This document shows positions 29,360 to 62,452 of a DNA stretch of 64,000 nt, piece by piece. The translations under genes and the position numbers were made by a program. The notes beneath the pieces were generated by a model that was given only the letters and a program-made list of their open reading frames with translations, was not told the origin of the DNA and did not search any database. Source of the stretch: Candidatus Poribacteria bacterium (GTDB lineage: Bacteria; Poribacteria; WGA-4E; PCPOR2b); NCBI GenBank assembly GCA_965208325.1, contig OZ242326.1, positions 4,064,001 to 4,128,000 on the forward strand, written 5' to 3'. Positions within the stretch are counted from its first letter, which is position 1, and each line of letters opens with the position of its first letter.

Positions 29360-30358
29360 ATGTTAATACGGATAACACCTATGTTTTCCCTTTCGGTTGT
29401 CGGTTTAGTCTTAATTAGCGTCATGTTTGTGGTGGACATTGAAGCACAAGCGCCGGCCGATCCGACAATCGCGATTACGACGAACGGAGCGGATTCCAAC
29501 ATCTGGCTAATGGACGCCGATGGCGTGAATGAGCGAGGTCTTCTACATGTTGGCGGACAACAACCCGTTGGTTTGGTATGGTCTCCGGACGGCACGAAGT
29601 TAGCGTTCCATAACAAAATTGGAGACAACGTCGATATTTACGTGGTGGGTTCGGATGGGAAGAATTTGAAACGGCTCACCGATCATGAGGCGGAAGATAG
29701 CAATCCGGATTGGCATCCAAGTGGTCAAAAACTAGCGTTCCAATCCATGCGAGACGGGAATTTTGAAATCTATACAATGACAACGGCGGGACAAGTCATT
29801 GAGAATCTTACGAACGATCCCGGTAACGACATTACGCCTGCATGGTCATTAGATGCGCGAAAGATAGCCTTTTCCGGCAAGCGGGGCAAAACCTTGGGAG
29901 ATGTCTTTGTGATGGATTCAGATGGCGCCAACCCTCAAAATATTACAAATACGCGCTCCAAGGATTTCGATCCCCGGTGGGCTCCAGATGGAAAACAATT
30001 CGTCTTTACGACGGAAAGGAATGGAGCTGGTGATATCTTCCTTATGGATATCAACGGGGAAAATCAGAGACAGATTAATTTTGAGCCTAATCCCGGGTTT
30101 GTTGGTATCGACGGGGCTCCCGTGTGGTCTCCGGACGGCGGGGAGGTCGCTTACGAAGTCTGTGGAGCCGGGGTCTGCAAGATTATTGTGATTGATCCTG
30201 ATAAGCCCAAAAATCAGCTTATCCTACCGCAACCGGGTGGATTCAATCGTTCTCCCGCTTGGTTTGATCCGGAATTTGTGGTGGAATTCTCTGTCTCTCC
30301 TGCTGGTAAACGCCCGATGACGTGGGGTTGGCTGAAGCAAGTGAGACATACGCAGTAA
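29360..30358 (+). CDS. Secreted TolB-like PD40 beta-propeller with conserved C-terminal tail
   Basis: Signal-peptide-like N-terminus; WSPDGTKLAF, WHPSGQKLAF, WAPDGKQFVF repeats; tail VSPAGKRPMTWGWLK. Confidence 0.85.
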   Translation: MLIRITPMFSLSVVGLVLISVMFVVDIEAQAPADPTIAITTNGADSNIWLMDADGVNERGLLHVGGQQPVGLVWSPDGTKLAFHNKIGDNVDIYVVGSDGKNLKRLTDHEAEDSNPDWHPSGQKLAFQSMRDGNFEIYTMTTAGQVIENLTNDPGNDITPAWSLDARKIAFSGKRGKTLGDVFVMDSDGANPQNITNTRSKDFDPRWAPDGKQFVFTTERNGAGDIFLMDINGENQRQINFEPNPGFVGIDGAPVWSPDGGEVAYEVCGAGVCKIIVIDPDKPKNQLILPQPGGFNRSPAWFDPEFVVEFSVSPAGKRPMTWGWLKQVRHTQ

Positions 30359-30662
30359 ACTGGAATTATAAGATTCTGCAAGGAGGGTATCTGGTTAATC
30401 GGTCAGAATTCAGATGTGGATGCTCGGCTTGAGTCGAAATATAGCTGCACTGAATATAAGTTGAGCATCCAATTTCAAGTGATTGAATCAACTCTTACCT
30501 ACTTACTTCCTTTAGTGCGACGCTGTGTTGACGGGAGTTGCAGGGCGTTTCAGCCATGGCTGAAATGACTGGATTTTCAAGAACACAGCGGACGCTATCA
30601 GCCAGCACGTTTCAGGTTCTTTCCTTCCATTGCAGCGGGCGCGAACAACAGAAATCATACGA

Positions 30663-31538
30663 CTACGTACCTTGGTAGGTATATTTGTCGTGCGCAATCC
30701 GCAAATCGAAGTCGTCCTGCTCCTCCCACACCGGCATGCCTGGCGGCACCTGATACTTGAATTGTTCCTCATCGGAACTGTAAGGTGCTTTGGCGCGTTC
30801 AACGAAGGCGCGTTGCAGTAGCTTGCATCGTTGTGCGATGAATCCGCGGCGCCACCAGCGGTATTTTTCGTTCCAAGCGATTGTGCGCTGATCGAAGTAA
30901 ATTACACGGCGAAGTTGTCCGCTAGAATTGATCTGGCTGCCGTGAAGCACTTTCGTATGGTGGAGAAGAACATCGCCGGGTTCCATTTCTGCAGGCACTG
31001 CATTAGGGAGATTGAAATTTTTTTGCCCTCTTTCAATCATCGCCGCGGCTTCTTCAACACTCCACATATGGCTGCCCGGTACTACCCAGACACACCCGTT
31101 GTCGACGGTTGATGCGTCAGGGTAGATGTCTACGTTAAATATTCGCAGCGTTTTTGCAAAGTGCTGATCGTCGCGATGCCACGGCACCGAAGAGCCGTTT
31201 TCCGGTAGCTTGAACACCAGTGACTCGAAGCACGGAATAAAATCAAACCCAACCATTCGATACAGCAGATCGGCAATGAAAGGGTGGGCAAGCAACCGAA
31301 GCGAAAAGGAGTTGGGATGGGAATGAAGATACCGAAGGTAATACGGAACACCTTCTGGTCCGCGAGAACACCAAGAGCCCGCCGGTCCCCCCGCTAGGAC
31401 CTCATCAATTAAACGTAAACTTTCCTTTTTGATTTCCGCAAGTTCGTCCGCCTGGATAATTGCGCGTAATATGACGAAACCGTTCTCATCAAAGTATTGT
31501 ATATCTTCGTCTGTTATCTTTTTCATTTGAGGTGCCAC
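30663..31538 (-). CDS. Phytanoyl-CoA dioxygenase (PhyH) family protein
   Basis: FDENGF, VPWHRD, NGCVWVVPGSH, PGDVLLH..VLHGS. Confidence 0.9.
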   Translation of the reverse strand: MAPQMKKITDEDIQYFDENGFVILRAIIQADELAEIKKESLRLIDEVLAGGPAGSWCSRGPEGVPYYLRYLHSHPNSFSLRLLAHPFIADLLYRMVGFDFIPCFESLVFKLPENGSSVPWHRDDQHFAKTLRIFNVDIYPDASTVDNGCVWVVPGSHMWSVEEAAAMIERGQKNFNLPNAVPAEMEPGDVLLHHTKVLHGSQINSSGQLRRVIYFDQRTIAWNEKYRWWRRGFIAQRCKLLQRAFVERAKAPYSSDEEQFKYQVPPGMPVWEEQDDFDLRIAHDKYTYQGT

Positions 31539-31785
31539 TGTACACGTTTTTCGTCATTTAACTTACTATTGCGTGAAATCATGATTAGTGATATGATAAA
31601 ATCGCTTGAGGACGGACAGAATTTAGACGTTAAAATCCACGCAGAACTGCAATAAGCAGGATACATTATACTATTAGCACTTCAGAATTACAATTACAAC
31701 GCGTGTTTTAACGCAGTTCGCATGCGCGGCACGAATTTCAAGTGCCGTAAGGTGTCCGGAATCAGTTTCAAACGGTGTATAACCA

Positions 31786-32559
31786 ATGCTCGACAAGAAT
31801 ATGGTTGCAAATCTTCCATCGCTTCCAGGGGTATATTTTTTCCTTTGTAAATCGGGGAATATCCTCTACATCGGCAAAGCGAAATCGTTGCGCAAACGAG
31901 TTGGATCCTACCTGCATAACCGGCGGCATCACGCTAAAGTTAAACGGTTGGTGCGGCGCGCTGCGCAAATTGATTATGCGGTATGTGAATCGGAAATGGA
32001 AGCCCTATTGCTAGAATCGCACCTAATAAAAGAACATCAACCGCCATACAATACTACCCTAAAATTCAACCGTCCGTCTTGGTTTATTCGAATCAATCCC
32101 AACGATTGTTTCCCCAAAGTAGACCTTGTATTAAAAATTGCTTCTGACGGCGCGAGGTATTGGGGGCCATTTTCTAGCCGCCGCTGGACGGAGGAAGCCA
32201 TCCGAGTGTTGCACAAGATTTTCCCAATTCGGTCGTGCGAGGATGAAATTACGCCCCAACCTGCTTTTCGCCCTTGCTTTAGTTACCATGTAGGGCGTTG
32301 CGGCGCCCCCTGCGCTGCGCGAGTCAGCCAGAATGCGTACCACGCGATGATTGAAAATGTTAGTCGTTTACTGGATGGAGAACACCAGGAGGTCGTCAAA
32401 GAACTGACCAATCAACGCAATCGAGCTGTTGACGAATTGCGATTTGAACGGGCGAGTGCCATCCAGAATCGAATCGAACGCGTCCAAAAAGTTTTCGTAT
32501 ACCTGAACGTACATCGAAATTATGCTAACACGAAAATAAAGGAGTTTCCTGGCAAATAG
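31786..32559 (+). CDS. Short UvrC homolog (GIY-YIG + Cys cluster + UVR; Cho-like architecture)
   Basis: LPSLPGVY, YIGKAKSLRKRVGSY, EALLLESHLIK..PPYN, C..C..RCGAPC, LRFERA; no RNase H or HhH C-terminal half. Confidence 0.85.
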   Translation: MLDKNMVANLPSLPGVYFFLCKSGNILYIGKAKSLRKRVGSYLHNRRHHAKVKRLVRRAAQIDYAVCESEMEALLLESHLIKEHQPPYNTTLKFNRPSWFIRINPNDCFPKVDLVLKIASDGARYWGPFSSRRWTEEAIRVLHKIFPIRSCEDEITPQPAFRPCFSYHVGRCGAPCAARVSQNAYHAMIENVSRLLDGEHQEVVKELTNQRNRAVDELRFERASAIQNRIERVQKVFVYLNVHRNYANTKIKEFPGK

Positions 32560-32581
32560 CAATGAGATTCCGATTTAGTGG

Positions 32582-32813
32582 CTAGGGCGTGTTGGCATTT
32601 CATCACAACTGAACAATCATGGGGGCAGTGCGCAGCCCCAAGACGATTCGTAGGGGTTGGGTTACCCAACCCTCTATTCCCAAACATATCTGTATGGTTG
32701 GCAGTCTCCTGCCAGCGGTTGATCTGTGGGCGAGGTGACCTGATCCCTCGCTATTCACTCGGTTGAGCCCCTACTGTTACGGAAGGATTCACACAAATGT
32801 CAACACGCCCTAG
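32582..32813. mobile_element. Putative MITE with 19-bp terminal inverted repeats and internal REP-like hairpins
   Basis: ctagggcgtgttggcattt ... aaatgtcaacacgccctag (18/19 match), CTAG at both ends. Confidence 0.75.
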
Positions 32814-32900
32814 TATTGTATCAGTTCAATTCGCGGCAAGAGTGGGTCGGAATTATGGAGTACGAATGATGCGCCGCGCAAATTTTTTTAGGAGGAAATA

Positions 32901-33959
32901 ATGACGCCGCTCTATTCCATATCGGTATGTGGCGGACTTGAAAAGATTGCGCTTGAAGAGATTCAAGCCCGATTTCATCGCACAGGCGGTTTGAAGGTCG
33001 TTGGGCGAGGACCGAAACGCATACTCTTTCGCTACTCTGGTGATGCGGAGCAATTGTTATCGCTTCGTGCCGCCGAAAATGTCTTCCTAATTATTAGAGT
33101 ATTTAGGGATATGACGCGATCCCGCCGCTCCTTAACAACGCTGAAAAAATCGTTTAAAAGGTTTGATTTTCGTCCGTATCTTGAGATTTGCCGAAACGCC
33201 GGAGTTCGATTTCGAAATCGGATTTCTTTTCGCGTAACTAGCCGGATGTCTACTCGCCATAATTTTCGGCGAATTGATTTACAGCGAGCTGTTGAGGAGG
33301 CTCTTGTAAGTTGCGGATGGTATCTGACTAATGAGAATCCCGCACTCGATGTATGGGTGGAAATTCACGGGGACGAAGCGCACGTGGCTATAAGGATTTC
33401 GCCGTTGCGTATGGCGCAAAGAGATTATAAGCAGGCTCATATCCCTACCTCTTTAAAACCAACGGTCGCTTACAGCCTCGTCCGTCTCTCGAATCCACAG
33501 CGCGACGATGTGTTCTTGGACGCAATGTGCGGCGCCGGAACTATCTTAATTGAACGAGCCTATTCCGGCCGATACCGCTATCTACTTGGCGGCGATGTCT
33601 TGCCCGAAGCGATTCGCGCGGCGCAGCAAAACATCAGCAGGAAGCATCGCCCGCGTCAACTCTTCTTATGGGATTCCCGATCCCTTCCACTGGCACAGTG
33701 GAGCGTCGATAAAGTTGTATGTAACCTGCCTTTTGGCGAACAGCGTAACGATGCCGATATAAGTAATCTGTATCGGCTGTTCCTCAACGAATGCGGGCGT
33801 GTCTTGAAACCGACCGGGCGGATGGTGCTCCTCACTACCCGGCAGTCAACACTTGAGTATCTGTTGAAGCAACGCGAATCTGTGTTTAAAATTAGGCAGA
33901 AATTTCGGATTAACCTGCTCGGGTTAAAACCTTGGGTCAATCTATGTTTGCCGTATTAA
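32901..33959 (+). CDS. THUMP-domain RNA methyltransferase (Trm14/RlmL-like)
   Basis: GLEKIALEEI, SLKPTVA, LDAMCGAGTILIE, CNLPFG; AGGAGG RBS. Confidence 0.82.
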   Translation: MTPLYSISVCGGLEKIALEEIQARFHRTGGLKVVGRGPKRILFRYSGDAEQLLSLRAAENVFLIIRVFRDMTRSRRSLTTLKKSFKRFDFRPYLEICRNAGVRFRNRISFRVTSRMSTRHNFRRIDLQRAVEEALVSCGWYLTNENPALDVWVEIHGDEAHVAIRISPLRMAQRDYKQAHIPTSLKPTVAYSLVRLSNPQRDDVFLDAMCGAGTILIERAYSGRYRYLLGGDVLPEAIRAAQQNISRKHRPRQLFLWDSRSLPLAQWSVDKVVCNLPFGEQRNDADISNLYRLFLNECGRVLKPTGRMVLLTTRQSTLEYLLKQRESVFKIRQKFRINLLGLKPWVNLCLPY

Positions 33960-34039
33960 TGATTGTGGTTTTTAGAGAATTCACATCGGGACTGTACCTG
34001 TTGTTACGAACAAATTTAGCATAGTAGCCCTTGCATCAA

Positions 34040-34386
34040 ATGCCAGTTTGAATTATAGGTGGCAAAGCCATTCTTGGGCGTTTGAGTTGGTATAACCGGT
34101 GGAACTTTTATCGCGCGGGATTTACTATCGCCTTCGCTAATCGCTCACTTGATTCTACCAAATACCTTACTCCCGCATTGGGCGGGGCAAGATGCCCCGC
34201 CTACCGGGTGTGGTGGCGTACGCGGGGCAAGGAAAAACTCTGTCGCGCGGGATTTACTATCGCCTTCGCTATTCGCTCAGTTGATTCTATTCAGTCGGTT
34301 GTTCCCCGCCTACGGAGGGTAGTGGGATACCTTACACCTCCCGCCCCTTTGGGGCTGTATAAAATGAATTTTCAAACAGGTTCTAA
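34040..34386. mobile_element. Dispersed MITE/REP composite element (family also at 48702, 44867, 61495)
   Basis: Shares ttgagttg-tataac-gg-tggaactt, gggatttactatcgcctt (twice), the REP hairpin and the end aattttcaaacaggttct with 48702-48939. Confidence 0.7.
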
Positions 34387-34477
34387 AGCAGCGTGCAATC
34401 GGATAAGGCATTTGATTGACAATGGAAATTGGTGATTTTCCGTAACTAGCACTTGCGGTCAAGGTGAGAATCGCGCA

Positions 34478-36895: not shown

Positions 36896-36922
36896 ATTTT
36901 CGCTTAGAACGGTGGTAAAACC

Positions 36923-37264
36923 ATGAATCTGTTCGCCTACGGCACTTTAAAAGATCGCGAGTTTATCCAGACGCTTCTAAATCGTTTCCATCATGAGCCA
37001 TCAAAAGCCATTTTACCAGGGTTTACAACTGTTATTTCAAAGTCGGGATATCCTGTCATGGTAACGGCTGACGGATGTAGCGTTGACGGAATTGTCTGGC
37101 GTAATTTGACGGAAAAGGATTTTGAAATCATGGACAGGTATGAGGGGTGTAATACGCAAACACCAGTATATCAGCGTGAAAAGCGGAAGGCTGTCGTTGA
37201 GGGGCGGGAAGAGGAAATTTGGGCGTATTTCGCGACACCGGCGTTTTTAATTCAGACGCGTTAA
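36923..37264 (+). CDS. Gamma-glutamylcyclotransferase (AIG2-like) family protein
   Basis: LFAYGTL, GYP, MDRYEG motifs. Confidence 0.85.
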   Translation: MNLFAYGTLKDREFIQTLLNRFHHEPSKAILPGFTTVISKSGYPVMVTADGCSVDGIVWRNLTEKDFEIMDRYEGCNTQTPVYQREKRKAVVEGREEEIWAYFATPAFLIQTR

Positions 37265-37360
37265 GCGGACGATTAACGAAACTCTTGAACTTGGCCCGCA
37301 ATTGCGGTTGATGTGTACCATTTTACGGTTTCATGAAGTATTTGAAACACTATAACCAAT

Positions 37361-37394
37361 AAAAAAAGGCAGCTAGCATTAGCTGCCTTTTTTT
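37361..37394. terminator. Bidirectional intrinsic terminator
   Basis: A7-ggcagcta gcat tagctgcc-T7 between convergent genes. Confidence 0.9.
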
Positions 37395-37424
37395 GTTTTA
37401 GGGTTTGAAGAAAATTGTCCGATT

Positions 37425-38903: not shown

Positions 38904-38984
38904 TTTTTCCTCCAAATTAAGTTTTTACTGAAACTGTGTTATCAGTTGGAATCGACTTAAACTTACTCGACGACAAAGTTATTG

Positions 38985-40005: not shown

Positions 40006-41838
40006 CTAATGCGTTTCATGTTCGCGTTGGCTCAGGTGTTTCCGGATGCTATTCGCTACGTTACGGGGAATTCCTTTGACAGCGAGCAATTCATCCAAAC
40101 TGGCTTGACGAACACTTGCAACGGATCCAAAGTGCTGGAGTAATCTCTGTTTCCGTTTGGCTCCGATGTTGGGAATTTCGTCAAGAATTGAGTGGTTGAT
40201 TGCGCGGCTGCGTAGCTTGTGATGGTAGGAGATAGCAAAGCGGTGGGCTTCGTCACGTAGACGCTGAATAAGGTGAAGTGTTGGGTTGTCCCGCCGGAGA
40301 ACAATTGCATCTTTGCGGTTTGGCAGAAAAATATGCTCGAATCGCTTCGCAAGCCCGATAATTGGAAGATGAGCGAGCTCAAGAGATTTCAACGCCTCGC
40401 AAGCTGCGCTTAGCTGCCCCTTGCCGCCATCAATCAAAATGAGGTCAGGAAAACGGTTTTCCTCAATTGCGCGGCGAAATCGGCGAGTGACCACCTCCTT
40501 CATCATTGCAAAGTCATTTTGTCCTTCTACGGTACGAATCTTGAAACGCCGGTATTCGGATTTGGCGGGTTCGCCATCTTCCATGACAACCATTGACCCC
40601 ACAGCGAATCGATCTCCCAGATTGGAGATGTCGAACGCGTCAATTCGTTGCGGCGGCCGATTAAGGTTTAACAACTCTTGTAGTTCAACTAGTGCTGGAT
40701 TATCCCCAGCTTTGAGCACGACTAATTGGTCCTTTTGTTCAAGGATCAAGCTCGCGTTCTTCGACGCCATCTCCACTAACTGGCGTTTGCGCCCTTTCTG
40801 AGGAATGTGCAGGGCCACACGACTTTCCCTTTTCTCGGAAAGCCAGTTTTGAATGGTTTCGAGCGTTTCAATTTCGCCCGGCAATACGACGGTTTTGGGG
40901 ATGAAGGAAGCGTCCTGATAGTATTGCTGCACAAAAGCCGTCAATGATTCACGCTTCGATTCGCGCTGAACATCGGTCAGAAAGTAATGCTCGCGCTCGA
41001 TGAGCTTCCCATCGCGTACCATCAGCACCTGAACGCATGCCTCATCACCTTTGCAGGCGATGCCAATTACGTCCTCATCCTCTGCAGACGTATTGTCAAT
41101 ATGCTGTTTTACAACACCTTGGTTAACGGTTTCAATCTGGTCTCGGTATTTTGCTGCGCCTTCAAAGTCAAGATTGGCGGCAGCGTTCTGCATCTTCTCC
41201 GCAAGTTCTTGGATAATGTGTTGTGTGTTTCCACTCAGGAATCGGCGGACGTTGTTCACAATCTCGGCATAGTCATCAGTGCTGATGAGGTCGGCGCACG
41301 GTCCGGGACAGCGATTAATATGATAATCTAGACAAACACGATACGCGTTGCCTGATTCTTTCAAGTTCAAGCTACAGGTGCGTACAGGAAATGCCTTTGT
41401 GAGTTGCTTAACTGTAAGGCGTGTTGCGCGGGTATGCACGAAAGGGCCGAAATACTTTGAGCCGTCATTTTCGATTTGGCGTGTGATGTAGAGGCCTGCA
41501 TAAGGTTCTTTGACCGTGAGTTTCAAGTAGGGATACCGCTTGTCATCCTTGAGTTTCACATTGTAGCGAGGTTGGTGTTCCTTGATAAGGTTGTTCTCCA
41601 AGATTAACGCTTCAACGTAGGTCTTGGTGAGGACAAAATCAACATCATGGACGTATCGCAGCATCGGCTCTGTCAGGGCATGCGGTGAGGCGCTGCTTTG
41701 AAAGTATGATCTTACACGCTGGTTGAGTGACGACGCTTTGCCGACGTATAGGATTTTCTCCTCAACATCCTTCATCAGGTAGACGCCGGAATTGGTAGGG
41801 AGATTTGCGAGTTTGTCTTTAAGCCGATTGTTCATCAT
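40006..41838 (-). CDS. uvrC: Excinuclease ABC subunit C
   Basis: Full length: GVYLM..YVGKA, DDKRYPY, DAFDISN, PDLILIDGGKGQL, RDEAHRFA, HhH. Confidence 0.97.
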   Translation of the reverse strand: MMNNRLKDKLANLPTNSGVYLMKDVEEKILYVGKASSLNQRVRSYFQSSASPHALTEPMLRYVHDVDFVLTKTYVEALILENNLIKEHQPRYNVKLKDDKRYPYLKLTVKEPYAGLYITRQIENDGSKYFGPFVHTRATRLTVKQLTKAFPVRTCSLNLKESGNAYRVCLDYHINRCPGPCADLISTDDYAEIVNNVRRFLSGNTQHIIQELAEKMQNAAANLDFEGAAKYRDQIETVNQGVVKQHIDNTSAEDEDVIGIACKGDEACVQVLMVRDGKLIEREHYFLTDVQRESKRESLTAFVQQYYQDASFIPKTVVLPGEIETLETIQNWLSEKRESRVALHIPQKGRKRQLVEMASKNASLILEQKDQLVVLKAGDNPALVELQELLNLNRPPQRIDAFDISNLGDRFAVGSMVVMEDGEPAKSEYRRFKIRTVEGQNDFAMMKEVVTRRFRRAIEENRFPDLILIDGGKGQLSAACEALKSLELAHLPIIGLAKRFEHIFLPNRKDAIVLRRDNPTLHLIQRLRDEAHRFAISYHHKLRSRAINHSILDEIPNIGAKRKQRLLQHFGSVASVRQASLDELLAVKGIPRNVANSIRKHLSQREHETH

Positions 41839-42236: not shown

Positions 42237-44181
<1,945 letters not shown>

Positions 44182-44525: not shown

Positions 44526-44554
44526 TTGACAAATGTAGTCTAGCTTGGTAGAAT
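44526..44554 (+). promoter_or_regulatory. Sigma-70 promoter of the tRNA Gly-Cys-Val operon
   Basis: TTGACA-N17-TAGAAT, 13 bp before tRNA-Gly. Confidence 0.85.
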
Positions 44555-44567
44555 TAACTGTTATTAT

Positions 44568-44639
44568 GCGGGAGTAGCTCAGCGGTAGAGCTCTACCTTG
44601 CCAAGGTAGAGGTCGCGGGTTCAAGTCCCGTCTCCCGCT
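44568..44639 (+). tRNA. tRNA-Gly(GCC)
   Basis: Cloverleaf; anticodon loop TTGCCAA; GGTTCAAGTCCC T-arm. Confidence 0.97.
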
Positions 44640-44644
44640 TTCAT

Positions 44645-44719
44645 GGCGGCGTAGCCAAGTGGTAAGGCGAGAGTCTGCAAAACTCTTATACGTCGGTTCG
44701 ATTCCGACCGCCGCCTCCA
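44645..44719 (+). tRNA. tRNA-Cys(GCA)
   Basis: Loop CTGCAAA; U73; encoded CCA. Confidence 0.97.
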
Positions 44720-44724
44720 ATTCT

Positions 44725-44798
44725 GGGCGGTTAGCTCAGTTGGTTAGAGTACTTGCTCGACACGCAAGGGGTCATAGGTTCAAATCCTATACCGCCCA
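44725..44798 (+). tRNA. tRNA-Val(GAC)
   Basis: Stem CTTGC/GCAAG, loop TCGACAC; A73. Confidence 0.93.
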
Positions 44799-44821
44799 CT
44801 TATATAGTATCCATTTATATC

Positions 44822-44848
44822 AAAGAGCCGAAAGGCTCTTTTTTTTTT
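44822..44848 (+). terminator. Intrinsic terminator of the tRNA operon
   Basis: aagagcc gaaa ggctc followed by a long T run. Confidence 0.92.
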
Positions 44849-44883
44849 GGCGGCCGCGCAAGCCGCTATAACCGGTGGAACTT

Positions 44884-45908
44884 CTATCACCTTGGCTAAC
44901 CGTTCAGTTGATCCTATTCGGTTGCCTGATCCCCGCCTACAGGTCGTGGCGATCAGCGCGGCAAGATGCCGCGCCTACGTGTCGTGTTGAGAAGCGGGGT
45001 AAGGAAGATCTCTATCGCAAGGGATTCACTATCGCCTTGGCTAACCGTTCATTTGATCCTGTTCGGTTGCCTGATCCCCGCCGACAGGTCGTGGCGATCA
45101 GCGCGGCAAGATGCCGCGCCTACGTGTCGTGTTGAGAAGCGGGGTAAGGAAGATCTCTATCGCAAGGGATTCACTACCGCCTTGGCTAACCGTACATTTG
45201 ATCCTATTCGGTTGCCTGATCCCCGCCGACAGGTCGTGGCGATCAGCGCGGCAAGATGCCGCGCCTACGTGTCGTGTTGAGAAGCGGGATAAGGAAGATC
45301 TCTATCGCAAGGGATTGACTATCGCCTTGGCTAACCGTTCAGTTGATCCTATTCGGTTGCCTGATCCCCGCCTACAGGTCGTGGTGGTCAGCGCGGCAAG
45401 ATGCCGCGCCTACGTGTCGTGTTGAGGAGCGGGGCAAGGAAAATCTCTATCGCACGGGATTGACTATCGCCTTGGCTAACCGTTCAGTTGATCCTATTCG
45501 GTTGCCTGATCCCCGCCTACAGGTCGTGGTGGTCAGCGCGGCAAGATGCCGCGCCTACGTGTCGTGTTGAGGAGCGGGGCACGGAAGATCTCTATCGCAC
45601 GGGATTAACTATCGCCTTGGCTAACCGTTCATTTGATCCTATTCGGTTGCCTGATCCCCGCCTACAGGTCGTGGCGATCAGCGCGGCAAGATGCCGCGCC
45701 TACGTGTCGTGTTGAGAAGCTGGGTAAGGATGATCTCTATCGCACGGGATTGACTATCGCCTTGGCTAACCGCTCAGTTGATTCTATTCGGTTGCTTGAT
45801 CCCCGCTTACAGGTCGTGGCGATCAGCGCGGCAAGATGCCGCGCCTACGTGTCGTGTTGAGGAGCGGGGCAAGGAAGATCTCTATCGCACGAGATTTTCT
45901 ATCGCCTT
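44884..45908. repeat. Tandem array of 7 x 145-bp REP-containing units
   Basis: Units start (ctatcgccttggctaacc or a one-base variant) at 44884, 45029, 45174, 45319, 45464, 45609, 45754, with a partial at 45899; few substitutions, no unique spacers. Confidence 0.96.
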
Positions 45909-45988
45909 CGTCTTGATTGTCCTTGTGCTGCAACCATGAGTTTCGGTTCCAACCCACCCACCAGGATTAGCGGCCAGTTTAAATTGCA

Positions 45989-48691
45989 CTATCCGCTGCG
46001 CCGTTTCCATATCGACACACTTTCAATTTTTACATCTGTTTCATAGTTCGATCGAATATACGCCGTGACGAGCGGCACCCTATCCACAGTTTGGATTCCA
46101 TCCGGACCGTTGCCCCATCCACTCCCCGTAGTGAAGATAACATACTTCGGCTTAGCTTGTTCAAGATCTGCAATCACTTCTTTCTGCAGCGGTTCAGGAG
46201 ACGCATACACTACTAGCGGGTACCGCGTTGGATTAGGCCTATCGGCGAGGAAGTAATATGCGGCCTGGTTTGATAGGTCAAAGATTGGATCGGTTGGTGC
46301 TGTGTTTTCCTGTATGTATGAGACAACCTTCTCAATCTCCTGCGCTTGGGCAGGAGGCGTAAGAATTCTCCCCGCACGTTCGATGTTAGGTTGAACGTAG
46401 GCTTCATACGGCGGCGAGATAGCTCCGAATCTCGGCAGTCGTATCAATGTCCGTTCGGCGATTGCGAGCGGCTTGTACAAATCGGCTTTAATATAGGAGA
46501 GCACTCCGGCAAGGATAACCAATAAGAATGCAAACCGGAGAGCGCCTGTTCGGGAAGAATGCATGCTGGGCGCAGCGTTAGCCATTTCGTCGTTGGCATC
46601 GTTTTCTGGCGGTTCTAATCTGTGGGGTTTTGTTTTGCGCAAGAACCGATCGATAAAATAGAAACAGATGAGCCATAAATATGCCAAACTGAACGTGATA
46701 TGGTGCCAGTCCGATCGGCCCAAGGCAGTACGGAAACAGATAATACCAGCCAATAGAATCAGCAGCAGTTTCCACTCTTTAATTTGTCCTCGGTTGGCTA
46801 TGGCATGAAACAGAAGGTAGGTTAAGGTCATCAAGTAGATTAGAATTGGGAAATACCACATGAACGGGCGGCTCAAAATGAAATCCGAAAATGTAACGAG
46901 GGACGTCACTTTTGAAAGTTCGGGGGATATGGGAATGAATGGCGTTCCAAAAATTGGGATGTGATAGACAGTTTGTATCCATGACCCTTCAATTACGTCG
47001 TCAATCGCGCCGTGCGCGCCAAAATAGATGAGGAACGGGAGAAAACCGATAAATACGCCCAACTTAAATATGAGCAGCGGAGACAGGTAAAATAACCGGC
47101 CCAATTTCAGAATTTTGTTTGGGGAAACGGTTTCAGGCAGCTCGCGCCGGACGGCAATAAAGCCGTAAAGAAGCAGAAATAGGCTGGATGCCGCCCATGT
47201 GTATAAACCGACATCCAGGCTGTTGAACACCGCCAGTGATGTACAGATTCCCGCCGCAATGAGAAATGGATTTCCAGATTTGACGCCTTTATTCAACCAA
47301 CAACACAGCAGCGCCATTGTGAGAAAACCGAAGATTTGCCTGTCTGACGCTGGTAGGTAGGCACGCGTAACACCTGCGACCACTTCCGTCGCAATCGCAA
47401 TAAAAATGAAAATCAAAGTGAAAAAATGCGCGGCGATTCGGCGCCGGAAAAATTGTAGTGCGAGCAGATAAAAAGCTACGTATCCCAGAGGATACACTAG
47501 GTGGTAAATCCTTCTATCCGATTCAATCGTTTCGCCAAAAAGTTTCATCCCAAGCAACGATTTGTACGCATTGTGAAAAAGCCCATGCAATATGCGAATG
47601 TCTCGATACGCAATTTCACCTCGAATCAGCTCGTTGACAACCCCAACGCGTTCTCCTTCGTGGAACAGGTCGATGCCGCCCGTATGCCACGCATGATTGA
47701 GACGGACATTGCTATCATACAAAAAGACATAGATGAGACCTGAAATCATAATAACAGTCAATACGGAGACTGCAATGTGAGGATCAAGGGAGTTGGAATT
47801 GGCGGGGGAACGAAGTTGCAAAAATACGAGAATTTTCAAAACAACAAACGCTGCGGCGGCTATTATTGCCAAGATGGTTGCCGCGTTCTCGATTTCAAAG
47901 AGCACAGCGAGCAATAGAAGCAGGAAGGTTGGGAAGAAAGTCAGCGCATCCCACCTGAGCACATCAGCGAAGCGGTAACCCGCCAATCCGCTTAACAATG
48001 CGGAATAACCTATCCAGAGAATCCATGTGCCTATGACTGAAAACAGCAACAGTTCCCAACATTGGAGCGGCGTAAGATCTTTTGGACTGCCGCGAATGAG
48101 TAGAAACACCGCCAAACACACACCGCTTGCGATCGGAATCGCGTGAAATCTCAAATTTTCTTTCGCCCACATTGCGAATCCGACACCATTTTCCGCAGGT
48201 ATTCTTTTGATAACTATCAGATTAAATGCCAGAAGCACGCCTTTGGCAAATAGGCAAAGGAGGAGAGGTATTCCGACAGTTCCCAGATGTGTTTCAGGCA
48301 AATACCCCTTTTCCAGCGTTAGCAGCAAGAGAAGAAACGGGAAAGCGTGTTGTCTCAGGATTAGTTCTTGAGGCTGTTTCGCCCAGACCGAACAGAGCGT
48401 AGAAACCCCAATCCAAAAGCCGCATGCCGATATCGTAAATAACGGTACGAAAACCGCGGCCGCTATGTAGTTTACAATCTCCTGACGCTTTGGATAGTTG
48501 TTTACTGAAACCCATCCGACCACCTCTGTCAATTCATTGACTCGCTTTTCCCCCAAAAACTGCAAATGTTCTTTGAAGGCAAAACTGAGCGCCAAAGCGA
48601 AGATGAAACTGCACACGGCAACTATCGCCGTATACGGTTGGTTGCTCGGGTGCCGCGCACAGTGGAAGGTTTTACGGATGGCGTCTCGCAT
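45989..48691 (-). CDS. Large polytopic membrane protein, possibly a GT-C fold glycosyltransferase
   Basis: 900 aa, many TM segments; DLFHEG, GEIAYRD..HG, ALGRSDWHH, YYFLADRPNPTRY. Confidence 0.6.
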   Translation of the reverse strand: MRDAIRKTFHCARHPSNQPYTAIVAVCSFIFALALSFAFKEHLQFLGEKRVNELTEVVGWVSVNNYPKRQEIVNYIAAAVFVPLFTISACGFWIGVSTLCSVWAKQPQELILRQHAFPFLLLLLTLEKGYLPETHLGTVGIPLLLCLFAKGVLLAFNLIVIKRIPAENGVGFAMWAKENLRFHAIPIASGVCLAVFLLIRGSPKDLTPLQCWELLLFSVIGTWILWIGYSALLSGLAGYRFADVLRWDALTFFPTFLLLLLAVLFEIENAATILAIIAAAAFVVLKILVFLQLRSPANSNSLDPHIAVSVLTVIMISGLIYVFLYDSNVRLNHAWHTGGIDLFHEGERVGVVNELIRGEIAYRDIRILHGLFHNAYKSLLGMKLFGETIESDRRIYHLVYPLGYVAFYLLALQFFRRRIAAHFFTLIFIFIAIATEVVAGVTRAYLPASDRQIFGFLTMALLCCWLNKGVKSGNPFLIAAGICTSLAVFNSLDVGLYTWAASSLFLLLYGFIAVRRELPETVSPNKILKLGRLFYLSPLLIFKLGVFIGFLPFLIYFGAHGAIDDVIEGSWIQTVYHIPIFGTPFIPISPELSKVTSLVTFSDFILSRPFMWYFPILIYLMTLTYLLFHAIANRGQIKEWKLLLILLAGIICFRTALGRSDWHHITFSLAYLWLICFYFIDRFLRKTKPHRLEPPENDANDEMANAAPSMHSSRTGALRFAFLLVILAGVLSYIKADLYKPLAIAERTLIRLPRFGAISPPYEAYVQPNIERAGRILTPPAQAQEIEKVVSYIQENTAPTDPIFDLSNQAAYYFLADRPNPTRYPLVVYASPEPLQKEVIADLEQAKPKYVIFTTGSGWGNGPDGIQTVDRVPLVTAYIRSNYETDVKIESVSIWKRRSG

Positions 48692-48701
48692 ATCAAAACG
48701 T

Positions 48702-48939
48702 TAAGGCTTGTTTGAATAAAATAATGGGTGACAAAGTCATTTTCGGGAGTTTGAGTTGCTATAACTGCTGGAACTTCTATCGCACGGGATTTACTATCGC
48801 CTTTGCTAATCGTTCAGTTTATCCTTTTCAGTCGCTTAAACCCACCGAATACCTTACTCCAGCATCGCGCGGGGCAAGATGCCCCGCCTACAAGGCGTGG
48901 CGGTGCACTGTAAAACACGAATTTTCAAACAGGTTCTTA
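48702..48939. mobile_element. Dispersed MITE/REP composite element
   Basis: Imperfect TIRs (taaggcttgtttgaat / ttttcaaacaggttctta); colinear with 34040-34386. Confidence 0.7.
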
Positions 48940-49071
48940 GTGAGTTTCGCGCCGATACTCGATTTGGGTGAACTCAACTATGAATAGAATGTGGGTATGG
49001 GTTGAGTTATGTATAAAAGAGGTGCGAGGAACGGCCCGGTAGATTTGCCAATGCGGGTTTTAACAACCTAC

Positions 49072-49854
49072 TCATTTCTCTTTCGCTTTGGCTTCGTCCC
49101 AAATTTTGTCTAGCCCCGCCAAGTCGTAATCCACAAAAGACTTACCCCGCCTGTCAAGTTCGGCCTCGACGTGATGAAAGCGATTGACAAACTTTCGGTT
49201 AGATTTCCGCAACGCCTCTTCCGCCTCAACTCCAACGAAGCGGCACAGATTGACAATTGAAAACAGCAGATCGCCAATCTCCATTTCGATTGCTTCTTCA
49301 TCCGACGATGAAATACTCGATTTAAGTTCTTGAATTTCTTCCTCTAGCTTTGGCAACACATCCGTGACGTTATCCCAATCGAATCCGACACGGGCGGCTT
49401 TGCGCTGAATGGTTTGCGCTCGCATTAGGCTTGGGAGGCGGTCAGGAATTCCGTCGAGAACGGAGTGGCGGTTTTCGTAACCTGCTTCGCTTCGTTTAAT
49501 CTCCTCCCAGTTTTTTAGCACTTCATCCGTATTCCGGACATTGACTCCGCCAAAAACATGGGGATGCCGCCGGACAAGCTTATCCGTAATTGATTGGATA
49601 ACCTCGTTGATGCTGAAAGCCCCGCTATCCTTGGCTAATTGGGCGTGCAGCATCACCTGCATGAGGAGGTCGCCGAGTTCTTCGGGCAATTTGCATGAAT
49701 CTTTGGCATCAATGGCTTCGATTACTTCATAGGTTTCCTCAATTAGGTCCGGTTTTAATGTTTCGTGAGTCTGGGCTTTGTCCCACGGACAACCGTTCTC
49801 GCTCCGCAACGCGGCAACCACCTGAACGAGTTTGTCAAATAATTCCTTGTGCAT
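49072..49854 (-). CDS. mazG: Nucleoside triphosphate pyrophosphohydrolase MazG
   Basis: LRSENGCPWD, EETYEV, EELGDLL, KLVRRHPHVF, VGFDW, EIGDLLF; start moved to MHKEL. Confidence 0.95.
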   Translation of the reverse strand: MHKELFDKLVQVVAALRSENGCPWDKAQTHETLKPDLIEETYEVIEAIDAKDSCKLPEELGDLLMQVMLHAQLAKDSGAFSINEVIQSITDKLVRRHPHVFGGVNVRNTDEVLKNWEEIKRSEAGYENRHSVLDGIPDRLPSLMRAQTIQRKAARVGFDWDNVTDVLPKLEEEIQELKSSISSSDEEAIEMEIGDLLFSIVNLCRFVGVEAEEALRKSNRKFVNRFHHVEAELDRRGKSFVDYDLAGLDKIWDEAKAKEK

Positions 49855-50418
49855 TATGTGTAGGAACTCTCCTGAATTAGGTGTAACCTTGTTACCTAAC
49901 TGCCGTAAATTATTGAACGAAACATACGTCCAATGCAACCTGCGGCAATAAGGTTCGATTCCGAATAGATTATCATTATATCCTTTAACGGATGTTTGTC
50001 AAGACGGAACTAAACCTAATCCATTCTCGCAAGATTCGGAGCATGACCGTGCATTTTGAAAATGATTGACACACCCAGGTAGGCGTGCTAGAATCTTGAA
50101 GGTACTTGAACAGATTTGGTAAAACGCCAACTTGATGAAGCCGCCTTCTTCGAGTCTGAATTTGCGTAGGGAAGACATCACCAAAATCTAGGAAAATGGT
50201 CTTAAATATACCGCGTATCGAACTGTTCTTCATTACGCTGGACTCAAAACATGGCGTGTACAGAAAAATGGTTGACGCACAAAAATAGAACATGGTAAAA
50301 TATCATAGCGAAAAATAGTTTGGGCAGTTTCCAAACAACCCGCCAATTTTTTTTGATTCACTTGTCAAAAATGGGACCTGTAATTATTGTCCCCTAACGT
50401 TAACAGGAGGTAACAAAA

Positions 50419-51213
50419 ATGAAAGTTTCATTAACGTATTTATCTGTGGTGTTCGGTCTCGTTGTTTTCGGATTGATGTTTAATGTGGAAAGCGATGCCA
50501 AGATTGAATCCTCCGGTGCATGGCTTTTGGACGAAGAAAGCGGAGGTAAGATTGAAGACGCTTCCGGTAACGGCATTGACGGAGAAATTGAGGGCGACGC
50601 CAAATTCCCTAAGGGGCAGTTCGGCAACGCGATGGAATTTAACGGTGAGAACACACTCGTTCTCTTCGAAAATGAAGATCCGAACCACGCATTTGCCCTT
50701 CATCGTGACAAGGATGTTACATTCATGTTTTGGGTGCAGCCTTTTGATGTCACCCATGACGGCATTTTCTGGACACGTGGCAATCCCAAGGGTGATGATG
50801 CAGATAGATTTAATATCTATTCTGGTCCCGGTGAAACCTTCGGATTCGATTACAGGGAAGTGGGTGGGACTATCCATGGCCTCATCCAAGGAATCGAGCT
50901 TAAAACCAAGGAATGGACCCACTTGGCAGTCACGAGAGAAGGTAATACTTACAATCTCTTCCACAACGGCAAACAGGTCTCACAGGCGAAAGATCCAAGC
51001 CCAAAACTGCCCGAAACTGCAAGCTGGATGATGTCTGGAAGACCCGGTTTTATTTTTAACGGAATGTTGGATGAAGTTGCGTTTTTCGACGCCGTCTTGA
51101 GTAAAAACGACATTTCCAACATCATGGATAATGGACTCGAAATAGCCGCACTTTCTGTCGAGCCTTCAGCCAAGCTCGCCACAGCGTGGGCGCGGATAAA
51201 AACCAGCCAATAA
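50419..51213 (+). CDS. Secreted LamG/concanavalin A-like domain protein
   Basis: Signal peptide; GAWLLDE, GQFGNAMEF, WTHLAVT, FNGMLDEV; tail VEPSAKLATAWARIK. Confidence 0.85.
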   Translation: MKVSLTYLSVVFGLVVFGLMFNVESDAKIESSGAWLLDEESGGKIEDASGNGIDGEIEGDAKFPKGQFGNAMEFNGENTLVLFENEDPNHAFALHRDKDVTFMFWVQPFDVTHDGIFWTRGNPKGDDADRFNIYSGPGETFGFDYREVGGTIHGLIQGIELKTKEWTHLAVTREGNTYNLFHNGKQVSQAKDPSPKLPETASWMMSGRPGFIFNGMLDEVAFFDAVLSKNDISNIMDNGLEIAALSVEPSAKLATAWARIKTSQ

Positions 51214-51414
51214 TTTCGATTTTGAGGTTTTGGGAAAAATTTGTTTCGAGTAAATGTCCCAAAACGAAATTTTATGCGGTTGAAACCACAAGCGTGCTTC
51301 TAGTTATTGAATTGCTAGAAGCACGCTTCAAACTCTCGCCTTGGGCTTTTCTTGTACGGCAGGTTTTTTACACACCTTAATGATATCCTCGGTTAGCCAC
51401 GAAGGGTTTATCTA

Positions 51415-52191
51415 ATGGCTATGAGTAAGCGTGTTTTATTGGGAGTAAGCGTTCTCGCTCTCGGCTTAATACTTGGATCGCAGTGCGCCGCGAGGATCGA
51501 TCCGAACACTATAGTAGGGATTTGGCTGCTTGATGAAGGTGAGGCGGATGATGCGTCCGAAAATGAACGGCACGGCAGACTTACCGGCAAACCCAAAGTG
51601 GTCGAAGGGAAGTTTGGGACGGCGCTGGATTTTTCCGGGGAAGGCGAATCCGTCAAGATTGCAGACTTAGGCGAAATCCTGCCCGCCAAAGTAGTGACAA
51701 TTACACTTTGGGTCAAAATTGGGGACCACGGTAAAAACCCGGATGTATTCAGCCTGAACCCGTGGGAGCCGGGCCGTATTGCTGTTGCCATATGGGACAA
51801 GCAAATATTCTGGCATTTTGGCGTTGGGGGAAAATGGATAGTTATCCGCTTCATTGACGAGGAATGGGTTGGACAATGGAAGCACTGGACTTTCATAAAT
51901 AACGCTGAAGATAATTTCATGGCGGGCTACATTGACGGTGAAAAAGCAGTTAGAATTGGGGGCATATCCGGCGAGTACGAACAACGCGGCGGAGACTTTC
52001 ACATCGCTGGACGGCCAGAAGCCTCCTTTTCGGGCGCGATCGACGATTTCGGCATATTTAATACGACTTTGTCCGAGGAAGACATAAAGATGATAGTTGA
52101 CAGGGGACTTGAGCGCGCAGCTCTATTTCAGGGTGTGAACAGCGCGGCTAAATTGGCTACGATTTGGGGGGGACTTAAGGCGTCACAATAG
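51415..52191 (+). CDS. Secreted LamG-like domain protein
   Basis: GIWLLDEG, GKFGTALDF, GYIDG, FSGAIDDF; tail VNSAAKLATIWGGLK. Confidence 0.85.
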   Translation: MAMSKRVLLGVSVLALGLILGSQCAARIDPNTIVGIWLLDEGEADDASENERHGRLTGKPKVVEGKFGTALDFSGEGESVKIADLGEILPAKVVTITLWVKIGDHGKNPDVFSLNPWEPGRIAVAIWDKQIFWHFGVGGKWIVIRFIDEEWVGQWKHWTFINNAEDNFMAGYIDGEKAVRIGGISGEYEQRGGDFHIAGRPEASFSGAIDDFGIFNTTLSEEDIKMIVDRGLERAALFQGVNSAAKLATIWGGLKASQ

Positions 52192-52210
52192 CACGCTAGG
52201 AAGGATATCT

Positions 52211-53020
52211 ATGAGTGTGAAAGGAAAATTACTGGCGGCATTTGCATTTACACTGTTAATAAATGCTTGTGTGTGGGTGTTTTCACCTGTTGCGGAAGCG
52301 ATTATTAAGCTCGAGTCGCTTGTGGTTGCGTTGCCGTTTGATGAGGGAAATGGCGACACAGCGGAGGATCTCTCGCCGCACGGGAATGATGCTCAGCTAG
52401 TGGAGGGCGCGAAATGGGGCGACGGAAAGTTTGGGAAATGCCTCCGCGTAAAGGAGCCCGCGCGCGCCGAAGTCGAGAATAACGAAAGTTTCTGGTTACA
52501 CGACAAGGATTTCACCCTAGCCATTACGATTAATTTTTCGAAGGAACCCGGTACCACCGGTTTAATTGCGCACGATAACGGACTTGGCGCAGAGGCTTTT
52601 AAGGCTGTATGGGAATTGTTGGGCGGGGTGTTTACGTTCCACATTAATAACGGTGCAAATAACGTCGCTTGGATTCGATCGGATTTTCTGGGTACACCCG
52701 AAATCAATCGATGGTATAGTGTGGTATTGGTAAAGAAAGGGATCACGTACACGCATTATCTCGACGGTGAATTGTTCGGTGTAGCGGAGAACAAGGAGCC
52801 GATTCCCCGCCAAATCGATAATCCGCTGACGATTGGCATGGCGGAGCACACTTTCTATTTCCCCGGCCTTATTGACGAAGTCGTTGTCGGGCACACGCCG
52901 TGGGTGCAGCAAGATGCGCAGCGGTATTTTGAAAGAGGTATCCAAGGTGTGTTGGCGGTTGAACCCAGTGATAAGCTGACAACCACGTGGGGCGGACTCA
53001 AATCTAACCGCAACCATTAG
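52211..53020 (+). CDS. Secreted LamG-like domain protein
   Basis: LPFDEGNGD, GKFGKCL, YLDG, FPGLIDEV; tail VEPSDKLTTTWGGLK. Confidence 0.85.
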   Translation: MSVKGKLLAAFAFTLLINACVWVFSPVAEAIIKLESLVVALPFDEGNGDTAEDLSPHGNDAQLVEGAKWGDGKFGKCLRVKEPARAEVENNESFWLHDKDFTLAITINFSKEPGTTGLIAHDNGLGAEAFKAVWELLGGVFTFHINNGANNVAWIRSDFLGTPEINRWYSVVLVKKGITYTHYLDGELFGVAENKEPIPRQIDNPLTIGMAEHTFYFPGLIDEVVVGHTPWVQQDAQRYFERGIQGVLAVEPSDKLTTTWGGLKSNRNH

Positions 53021-53291
53021 TAAAGCTATCGCCGCCGGAAAAGAGCAGCGACCAGTTTCGTTACTAGCGAACCGCACAATTCAAATAGAGAACTGAAAGG
53101 GGGTGTTGCGCGGATACGATCCATATACCCTATGGTAATGTAAAAACGACCAGGGGCATTTTCAAAGCGAAATGTTTCGCTGGAAATAAATATCCGGATA
53201 TTATGCCGGATTGCTGATGTTTTTAAATACAGGGGGGCGGTGCATTGTACAGCTCCTTAATCCAAAAATCTAAATGGAGGAAGTCAATTTA

Positions 53292-54083
53292 ATGATTACC
53301 AGAATCGCAACATTAGGTTTAGCCTTTTTTATGGCGTTTGGGCTGATGATTGTTGGACAGAGCGATGCCGGGCTAGTTGGCGCATGGCTTTTCGATGAAG
53401 GCTCTGGCGACGTTACTAAAGGATTAGTAGGTAGTGATGGCATGTTAATGAATGGCGCTACTTGGACTGATGGCGTAAGAGGATCTGCGGTCTCATTTCA
53501 TGATCCAGATTCCCAACATGTTCTATTCAACGCCGACGAGGATCCAGAAAAAGCTTTCATTCTGCACAGCGATTCAGATGTCACTCTGGTATTGTGGGCA
53601 CGTGCTACTGAACCATCCCGACACGGCTCATGGATGTGGTCCCGAGGCGATGACCTTGATGAGGGCCGATTTAACGTCCACAACGGAGACGGTACCGTAT
53701 TCAGCTTCGACTACAGAGAAGATCCTGGTGGAGAACACCACCCCACGGACTGGGGCGTGTTTAATGTGCCTCTTACCGTAGGCGAGTGGACTCACGTTGC
53801 ACTCACACGAATCGGAAACGAATACACGCTCTATGGAAACGGCTCGCCAACGTCGACGTTTGTAGACGAGAATCCGAAACTTCCTACCGCCAACGGTTGG
53901 ATAGTCGGCTCGCCGCGGGGATGCTGTCCGCTAAACGGTGATGTTGACGAAATTGGATTCTTCGATATCGCGTTGACCCAAGATCAGATTAACATGGTTA
54001 TGGGCGGCGTCGAGGCGCTTGGTGCGGTCGAATCGTCAGGCAAACTCGCCACGACGTGGGCAGACATTAAGGGCCGCGACTAA
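53292..54083 (+). CDS. Secreted LamG-like domain protein
   Basis: GGAGG RBS before MITR; GAWLFDEGSG, WTHVALT, LNGDVDEI; tail VESSGKLATTWADIK. Confidence 0.85.
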   Translation: MITRIATLGLAFFMAFGLMIVGQSDAGLVGAWLFDEGSGDVTKGLVGSDGMLMNGATWTDGVRGSAVSFHDPDSQHVLFNADEDPEKAFILHSDSDVTLVLWARATEPSRHGSWMWSRGDDLDEGRFNVHNGDGTVFSFDYREDPGGEHHPTDWGVFNVPLTVGEWTHVALTRIGNEYTLYGNGSPTSTFVDENPKLPTANGWIVGSPRGCCPLNGDVDEIGFFDIALTQDQINMVMGGVEALGAVESSGKLATTWADIKGRD

Positions 54084-62446: not shown

Positions 62447-62452
62447 TTTAGG

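Follow-up and report, generated by a model that had tools for sequence, protein, structure and literature searches.

What does a short peptide do when it ends otherwise different exported proteins? A stretch of 64,000 nucleotides from a Candidatus Poribacteria genome (contig OZ242326.1, positions 4,064,001 to 4,128,000; hereafter the window) raises this question, as one PD40 beta-propeller protein and four Laminin_G_3 (LamG) proteins encoded there end in tails of 18-21 residues that follow one pattern. The first-pass annotation of the window, made from the letters alone, had read these tails as a short export, anchoring or docking signal. Our analysis confirmed the pattern and showed it to be specific to the phylum and under strong selection: an unstructured peptide at the C-terminus of exported proteins with many different folds. 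Below we set out this evidence and weigh what the tail may be for.

A C-terminal tail on exported proteins of many folds

Translation of the five open reading frames (ORFs) gave V-x-[PS]-x2-K-[LR]-x-[TM]-[TAI]-W-[GA]-x-[LI]-K plus three to six residues, directly 5' of the stop codon, in 5/5 cases, and the tails quoted by the first-pass annotation proved exact. The PD40 propeller protein (332 aa; 29360..30358, + strand; PF07676, 113 bits) carries its tail at 30293..30355 (+), in a variant of the PD40 subfamily, K-R-P-M-T-W-G-W-L-K, followed by six residues. The four LamG genes lie in tandem, also on the + strand: LamG 1 (264 aa; 50419..51213) with its tail at 51157..51210, which is 18 aa counted from the conserved Val, LamG 2 (258 aa; 51415..52191) with its tail at 52135..52188, LamG 3 (269 aa; 52211..53020) with its tail at 52958..53017, and LamG 4 (269 aa; 53274..54083) with its tail at 54027..54080. 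These assignments come from translation, Pfam and a check of coordinates, supplemented for LamG 3 by an AlphaFold2 (AF2) model. Pfam bore out the two folds claimed for the carriers, and all five have the signal-peptide-like N-terminus that had been ascribed to them, basic-hydrophobic and with an A-x-A-like end. A search of the window in six frames with the regular expression K-x4-W-[GAS]-x-[ILVM]-K matched exactly these five ORFs.

We then extended the search to the genome, a single contig of 4.71 Mb with 4125 called genes and 28,642 stop-to-stop frames of at least 60 aa. The same expression matched 112 times in these frames, and 109 of the matches lay within 14 residues of the stop. Reversed frames gave four matches, none C-terminal, and five shuffles gave two to six, with zero or one C-terminal. 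A profile hidden Markov model (HMM) of the tail, the check that had been proposed for it, led to the same picture: C-terminal matches dominated (110 at E<1e-3 and 20 weaker ones), and the 15 internal matches were all weak (E>0.1), so no convincing internal copy of the Trp form was found. Proteins with a tail score of at least 8 bits within 15 residues of the stop were defined as carriers, of which there are 123.

The genome-wide consensus of the tail is [AS]-V-x-P-x-[GDE]-K-[LR]-[ATSP]-[TL]-T-W-[GA]-x-[LIVM]-K, and the PD40 carriers have a flavour of their own, K-[RQ]-P-L-T-W-G-W-[LI]-K. The Trp of the terminal motif is invariant (123/123 carriers of this genome). The extension after the last Lys is Arg-rich and unconserved, with a length of 1-14 residues and a mode of three. 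Among the 109 tails found by the regular expression, the Lys is the very last residue in 12 and is followed by 1-14 residues in 97; the commonest last residues are Arg, Asn and Lys, Phe, Tyr or Trp comes last in 10, and the longest uncharged run is eight residues. Three short ORFs on the + strand, at genome positions ~1169960-1170269, 1247866-1248217 and 1552637-1552931, consist of little besides the tail (28-39 aa from the first Met) and are probably remnants of decayed carrier genes.

What do the carriers have in common besides the tail? Once the last 30 residues were removed, BLAST sorted them into 11 clusters: 69 LamG proteins, 33 PD40 propellers, four proteins with no Pfam match, two cohesin-domain proteins, one pair that includes a 3-keto-disaccharide-hydrolase/DUF1080-like protein, and six singletons. 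The PD40 carriers are single propellers of ~330 aa or double ones of ~600-650 aa. Six Pfam families occur among the carriers (Laminin_G_3, PD40, Cohesin, 3keto-disac_hyd, Temptin_C and DUF3108_like), several carriers belong to no family, a Big_5 protein has a weaker tail, and a Kelch-domain carrier was found among the public database matches. By a hydrophobicity heuristic, 114/123 carriers have a hydrophobic N-terminus; at a stricter cut-off this held for 106/120, vs 1098/4125 (27%) of all called genes. The carriers that fail the heuristic are mostly miscalled starts or short gene fragments, and the Trp form was not seen on proteins lacking an export signal, which agrees with the earlier remark that no cytoplasmic protein of the window was seen to carry the tail. 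A lipobox-like site was found in 1/120. Given the export heuristic, the near absence of lipoboxes and the domain content, the carriers are therefore small, soluble, exported, all-beta proteins of binding type.

The tail was next sought in 121 Poribacteria genomes from eight families and 19 genera. Its profile matched in 121/121, with 19 to at least 70 matches per genome (scores were taken for no more than 70), and a first look had given 42-365 candidates per genome. By profile search it was found in 0/5 genomes of other phyla (Gemmatimonadota, KSB1, Zixibacteria, Calditrichia and Cloacimonadales, as titled), where the best match reached 13 bits; these five hold the same type of type IX secretion system (T9SS) C-terminal domain (CTD) as the Poribacteria. 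A library of 1.84 billion proteins (cluster representatives) yielded 688 matches to the tail at E<=0.001. Of the 150 best, 146 match over a segment that stops no more than ~10 residues short of the C-terminus; the remaining four are one false positive (a repeat protein that matches the A-V-N-P part alone), one apparent fusion that looks like two joined propeller genes, and two tails with 24-40 extra residues. All named database matches are 'Candidatus Poribacteria', including 6/6 in one listing. A full-text search of the literature, which did not extend to the supplements of Kamke 2014, found no description of the tail. These results show that the tail is phylum-wide and phylum-limited.

Furthermore, the tail is better conserved than the proteins that carry it. 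Averaged over alignment columns, identity is 0.68 for the tail, 0.41 for the LamG core and 0.15 for the stretch after the last Lys, and the tail is kept in 79/79 aligned LamG relatives. A DNA repeat, a terminator or an RNA element was considered as an explanation and excluded because all synonymous codons are in use at the conserved Val, Pro, Lys, Thr and Gly positions. The tail is thus shown to be under purifying selection at the level of the protein.

Is it part of a fold? The first-pass annotation had suggested AlphaFold as a test of independence. In the AF2 model of LamG 3 the core has a pLDDT above 90, and the tail (residues 250-269) is unpacked with a pLDDT of 52-56. When a Trp-type tail was modelled together with a CTD, the CTD reached a pLDDT of ~90 and everything before it, tail included, stayed below 50. 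Because confidence is low both behind LamG and before the CTD, the models predict a linear motif that is not part of a fold. A Foldseek search with the LamG model returned generic lectin-type jelly-roll domains only (11-16% identity) and gave no functional lead.

These observations bear on the possibility that the tail is no signal at all, and is instead a structural cap or folding aid of beta-rich domains, a substrate of phytanoyl-CoA dioxygenase (PhyH)-family hydroxylases, or the decaying remnant of a CTD. All carriers are indeed beta-rich, PhyH genes adjoin tail genes, and the motif resembles a stretch that precedes some CTDs (see below). Yet AF2 packs the tail onto neither LamG nor the CTD, and 11 unrelated clusters share the peptide and are themselves less conserved than it is. 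Together with the evidence on CTD remnants and PhyH proteins given in the next sections, this makes a non-signal explanation very improbable.

The tail and type-IX-like secretion

The CTD that the five genomes of other phyla hold is also among the closest known parallels to the tail. According to Kamke 2014 (PMC3909097), WD40 proteins of Poribacteria bear the TIGR04183 domain, and no Por structural genes turned up in single-cell genomes. Our genome has 56 TIGR04183 and 63 PF13860 (FlgD_ig) matches, in proteins other and larger than the carriers of the window. Of the 55 CTD proteins located, 15 (WD40 proteins for the most part) have V-E-P-x5-T-T-L-G-x-I-K-R-T immediately before the CTD, a stretch that resembles the tail and has Leu or Phe at the position of the tail Trp. 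Across the 121 genomes, the junction pattern occurs 318 times in its Leu/Phe form, in 40 genomes, and five times with Trp, in three genomes, and reversed-pattern controls gave no match. The Leu/Phe junctions are found in all genomes of families f1 and f2 (27/27) and in some of genus g5; the five Trp junctions all lie in deeper branches. Among CTD loci in named records (n=80), the motif precedes the CTD in 9/42 titled as Poribacteria vs 0/38 others, and these 38 have the usual [IL]-P-x2-F-x-L-x-Q before N-Y-P-N-P-F. The first-pass annotation was therefore right that the tail is not a T9SS CTD, but the two are not as unrelated as it implied, since a Leu/Phe variant of the tail, and rarely the Trp form, adjoins CTDs in some Poribacteria.

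The Trp is invariant when the motif is terminal and almost always replaced when a CTD follows. On these sequence patterns, the simplest reading is that the Trp would be needed for a recognition step that the CTD otherwise supplies.

We also considered whether tail genes might be recently truncated CTD genes. No CTD remnant was found downstream of them (two regular-expression matches among the 123 proved spurious on inspection), so recent truncation was rejected. The free tail is the universal form (121/121 genomes) and the junction form is not (40/121); this distribution, and the lack of downstream remnants, also speak against the tail as a decaying CTD.

A candidate apparatus for type-IX-like cargo is encoded in the genome. 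It includes a SprA-like protein of 2188 aa (genome 3089390-3095956, - strand) recognised by five collinear matches to the SprA model, two PorV homologues (164340-165341 and 4250999-4252093, both +), and two PorU-like C25 peptidases of ~2100 aa (4021620-4027898, +, and 3715227-3721577, -) with a C25 propeptide, a peptidase domain and a CTD of their own. Several PorV-like barrels are present, and two pass the Pfam PorV cut-off. Searched against the PDB, the PorV profile matched F. johnsoniae PorV (6h3i_F) over nearly its full length (E=1.4e-31), and the best match of the C25 propeptide-C25-CTD proteins is P. gingivalis PorU (6za2_A, E=4e-29). A PorV ortholog and the SprA-like protein are each conserved in 41/41 genomes. 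GldK gave only generic FGE-sulfatase-type matches below cut-off. The closed genome, with SprA-, PorV- and PorU-like proteins and no GldL or GldM match, suggests a putative reduced type-IX-like apparatus.

The explanation that we tentatively prefer, with slightly less than even confidence, is that the tail is a sorting or docking tag recognised in trans, most likely in the same route as type-IX-like cargo. A Sec signal peptide would carry the small, soluble, all-beta binding proteins across the inner membrane. Their unstructured tail and its Arg-rich extension would then be bound in trans by one common component of the envelope, which would fix their final location. Most likely, the tail would thereby do, without a folded domain, the recognition job of the ~90-residue CTD, and the invariant Trp would supply the binding energy that the CTD otherwise gives. 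The route would lead through the SprA-like barrel, PorV and a PorU-like C25 peptidase, and the protein would be kept at the outer membrane or the cell surface or be delivered there. The initial proposal of a short export, anchoring or docking signal thus holds in that there is a fold-independent tag on exported proteins, about 120 per genome and in the whole phylum; its directing role and its recogniser, and with them the binding in trans, the partner, the compartment and any cleavage, we infer.

Several points weigh against this explanation. First, the apparatus is only a candidate secretion system: the SprA-like protein scored 65+57+27+20+15 bits against TIGR04189, below the cut-off of 200, and had no phmmer match in the PDB, and the genome gave no match to GldL or GldM, models that gave no match in control genomes either. 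Second, SprA-, PorU- and PorV-like genes, TonB-dependent receptors and secretins lie at background distance from tail genes (median 24 genes); 12/13 TonB-dependent receptors are at least 11 genes away, and the secretins (n=2) are also not close. Third, the link between tail and CTD is partial, as 40/55 CTD proteins of this genome have no motif before the CTD and junctions occur in 0/45 genomes of genus g7, although four g7 genomes hold 36-67 CTD matches each. Tail and CTD are therefore separable modules that some proteins combine, and their juxtaposition proves compatibility alone. Fourth, according to PMC10994853, the canonical T9SS binds the CTD in its folded state, within the SprA pore and on PorV loops, and it is not obvious how a 16-residue peptide could mimic a folded CTD in that pore. 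Finally, the company that tail genes keep (PhyH, DUF6785 and sugar or oxidoreductase genes) is no worse a fit to nutrient-capture loci than to surface display. When PorV (31-row alignment) and a 45-residue tail region (23 rows) were co-folded, the score was 0.01 against a mark of 0.32, which carries no weight either way.

A bolder version, which we consider unlikely, is that the tail is a minimal linear signal for outer-membrane sorting or ligation that replaces the CTD in the SprA-like/PorV/PorU-like route, is possibly cut after the Lys and leaves its carrier joined to the surface. If true, it would be the first C-terminal sorting signal of exported proteins in a diderm bacterium to have neither a helix nor a domain, and type-IX-like export outside Bacteroidota would work under different rules.

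The junctions raise the further question of whether the conserved Lys is itself a site of chemistry. Among C25 peptidases are gingipains specific for Lys or Arg, and PorU acts as a transpeptidase of sortase-like type. A PorU-like C25 peptidase or another transpeptidase might cut after the last Lys and release the extension or the CTD; the protein might then be joined to a surface glycolipid, to peptidoglycan or to another protein, or one of the two invariant Lys might serve as a cross-link acceptor. Both the low conservation (0.15) and the variable length of the residues after the Lys are as in a leaving group, the genome has two PorU-like C25 proteins, and in the junction forms the motif Lys directly borders the CTD (I-K, then R-T-A-L-L-Q-N-Y-P-N-P-F). 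This boundary residue is Lys in 26/48 CTD proteins of the genome. However, the other 22/48 have another residue there, so that the Lys is not required for removal of the CTD, and sixteen conserved residues far exceed what a protease or sortase site usually needs. Moreover, the Lys ends the protein in 12/109 tails only, unlike in the Braun lipoprotein (Lpp), whose C-terminal Lys is tied to peptidoglycan. We therefore regard a covalent site as improbable in either variant.

Genomic company of the tail genes

Could the neighbours of the tail genes reveal their function? The 120 called tail genes form 58 loci, of which 31 are singletons and the others are arrays of up to six. We clustered all 4125 called genes against each other and asked by Fisher test which families lie close to tail genes. 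PhyH alone is strongly enriched: 29/86 PhyH genes lie within three genes of a tail gene vs 343/4005 others (8.6%), with p=2.6e-11 when paralogues, which are kin, are counted as independent. Where PhyH and tail genes are directly adjacent, 16/17 pairs are co-oriented. In the window, the gene of a cytoplasmic PhyH dioxygenase (30663..31538, -) and the PD40 tail gene converge, and another, weak PhyH match lies in the upstream context (24074-24907, -). An expansion of PhyH is described as a hallmark of Poribacteria by Kamke 2014 (PMC3909097), and two phylum-specific expansions, PhyH and the tail, travel together. As for the tail as a hydroxylase substrate, the PhyH proteins are diverse and 0/86 have an export signal, which suits many small-molecule substrates better than one peptide.

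A second neighbour is a multi-pass membrane protein with the Pfam domains DUF6785 and DUF6784 (25082..27067, -), encoded two genes (three called ORFs) upstream of the PD40 gene. Beside it, on separate short ORFs at 27207-27545 (-) and 27607-27855 (-), lie remnants that comprise the first 67 positions of DUF6785 and a complete DUF6784 and look like a second copy with its middle deleted. The genome has 28 DUF6785 paralogues; 10/28 have a tail gene within four genes, vs a background of 13%, and three lie within four genes of a PorV-like gene. With stricter clustering the figure for tail genes was 4/24 (p=0.14), and three of the ten close cases are one locus. At genome positions 156379-165341, seven genes include those for a DUF1080-like tail protein, a PhyH protein, a DUF6785 protein and the best PorV homologue; this locus may be a self-contained uptake or export unit.

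Overall, the surroundings of tail genes look like nutrient-capture or catabolic islands, which leads to another explanation. The tail might be a docking peptide with which ~120 small LamG, PD40 and similar ligand binders, soluble in the periplasm or at the surface, pass their cargo to a few shared transporters. The plug might fit DUF6785/DUF6784 inner-membrane proteins or PorV/FadL-like or TonB-dependent channels, with PhyH proteins processing what is imported, candidates that we put forward with considerable doubt. This would account for the strong enrichment and co-orientation of PhyH beside tail genes and for the pairing of two expansions specific to the phylum (for PhyH, PMC3909097). It would also fit the 10/28 DUF6785 genes near tail genes, the neighbourhood of DUF6785, PhyH and the PD40 tail gene in the window, and the nature of the carriers, which are single-domain binding folds without lipoboxes. 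There is a precedent in the Bug/TctC family of Bordetella, where many orphan binding proteins share few membrane parts. However, the DUF6785 enrichment is weak, given the single locus behind three of ten cases and the result of the stricter clustering, DUF6785 is a general Pfam family and the tail belongs to one phylum, TonB-dependent receptors are remote from tail genes (12/13, as above), and the motif at the passenger-CTD junctions of large WD40 surface proteins is left unexplained. A role in nutrient capture is thus conceivable, and we do not expect it to be the answer.

The other genes of the window have housekeeping roles (UvrC, GroEL, MazG, a histidine kinase, a methyltransferase and an M24 peptidase), and the window contains no secretion gene. 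A GIY-YIG and UVR-motif protein of 257 aa (31786-32559, +) resembles the N-terminal part of UvrC and lies 7.4 kb from the full-length UvrC gene (40006-41838, -). An ORF of 900 aa (45989-48691, -) had no Pfam match at E<=1e-5. The window also contains three tandem tRNA genes (44568-44798, +), a large SRP RNA (61119-61386, -) and a cluster of seven tRNA genes (62221-63356, -). In two sponge metatranscriptome runs from one study, contigs cover relatives (90-95% identity) of three of the four LamG genes; as a contig does not prove transcription and DNA may be present in the libraries, these were not used as evidence of expression.

Comparison with known C-terminal signals

The tail marks about 3% of the genes (120 of ~4100 called) in an abundant, uncultured phylum of sponge symbionts. 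Its carriers are lectin-like and propeller modules, of the kind expected to touch host or food molecules, and the destination of the tagged proteins would bear on how Poribacteria live inside sponges. The split between Trp and Leu/Phe, in free vs CTD-linked motifs, offers a concrete handle for experiments, and the motif provides a simple annotation mark for a large class of exported Poribacteria proteins.

How does it compare with signals already described? Sortases, exosortases, rhombosortase and the T9SS are envelope machinery reached through C-terminal sorting tags. Pfam and NCBIfam (at E<=1) returned no sorting-family or sorting-domain model for the five proteins of the window, in line with the claim that no known sorting family covers the tail. 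The tail is outside every curated sorting family, and it lacks what defines a T9SS CTD, a tripartite signal, a beta-signal of outer-membrane proteins or an Lpp-type Lys.

The tripartite signals (LPXTG/sortase, PEP-CTERM/exosortase, GlyGly-CTERM/rhombosortase and MYXO-CTERM) (bioRxiv 10.1101/2023.06.07.544157) are like the tail in that it is short, borne by many paralogues and confined to one lineage. There is also a loose likeness to PEP-CTERM, as the tail starts with V-x-P and ends basic, and PEP-CTERM has V-P-E-P and then Arg or Lys. Unlike these signals, the tail has no transmembrane helix, and no dedicated sortase-type gene was found beside tail genes. The first-pass annotation had already set it apart from LPXTG, PEP-CTERM and GlyGly-CTERM on the former ground, and the longest uncharged run of eight residues in 109 tails agrees with this distinction.

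As in Lpp, an invariant Lys stands close to the end of an exported envelope protein, but this Lys is not last in 97/109 tails and the carriers are not lipoproteins. The beta-signal of outer-membrane proteins ends in an aromatic residue, as do just 10/109 tails. Type I secretion signals and the cargo peptides of encapsulins and microcompartments differ in another way, since their cargo has no N-terminal Sec signal and the tail carriers have an N-terminal export signal (106/120 by the heuristic).

Among the closest known systems is the T9SS type A CTD (TIGR04183/PF18962/FlgD_ig) of Bacteroidota and FCB-group cargo. Like the tail, it forms the very end of Sec-exported proteins that differ widely in fold, with dozens per genome, and the genomes that have the tail also hold 55-60 such CTDs together with PorV, PorU-like and SprA-like genes. 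A conserved Lys lies near the C-terminus of both and is important in the CTD according to PMC10994853, which is a parallel only. In contrast to the CTD, an Ig-like beta-sandwich of ~90 residues, the tail has 16 conserved residues, is predicted to be disordered and matches no CTD HMM. Furthermore, the tail is restricted to Poribacteria, whereas this type of CTD is found in Ignavibacteria, Calditrichia, KSB1, Zixibacteria, Gemmatimonadota, Marinimicrobia, Cloacimonadota and Bacteroidota. As the tail is free of membrane helices and folded domains, its reader probably works unlike the known systems.

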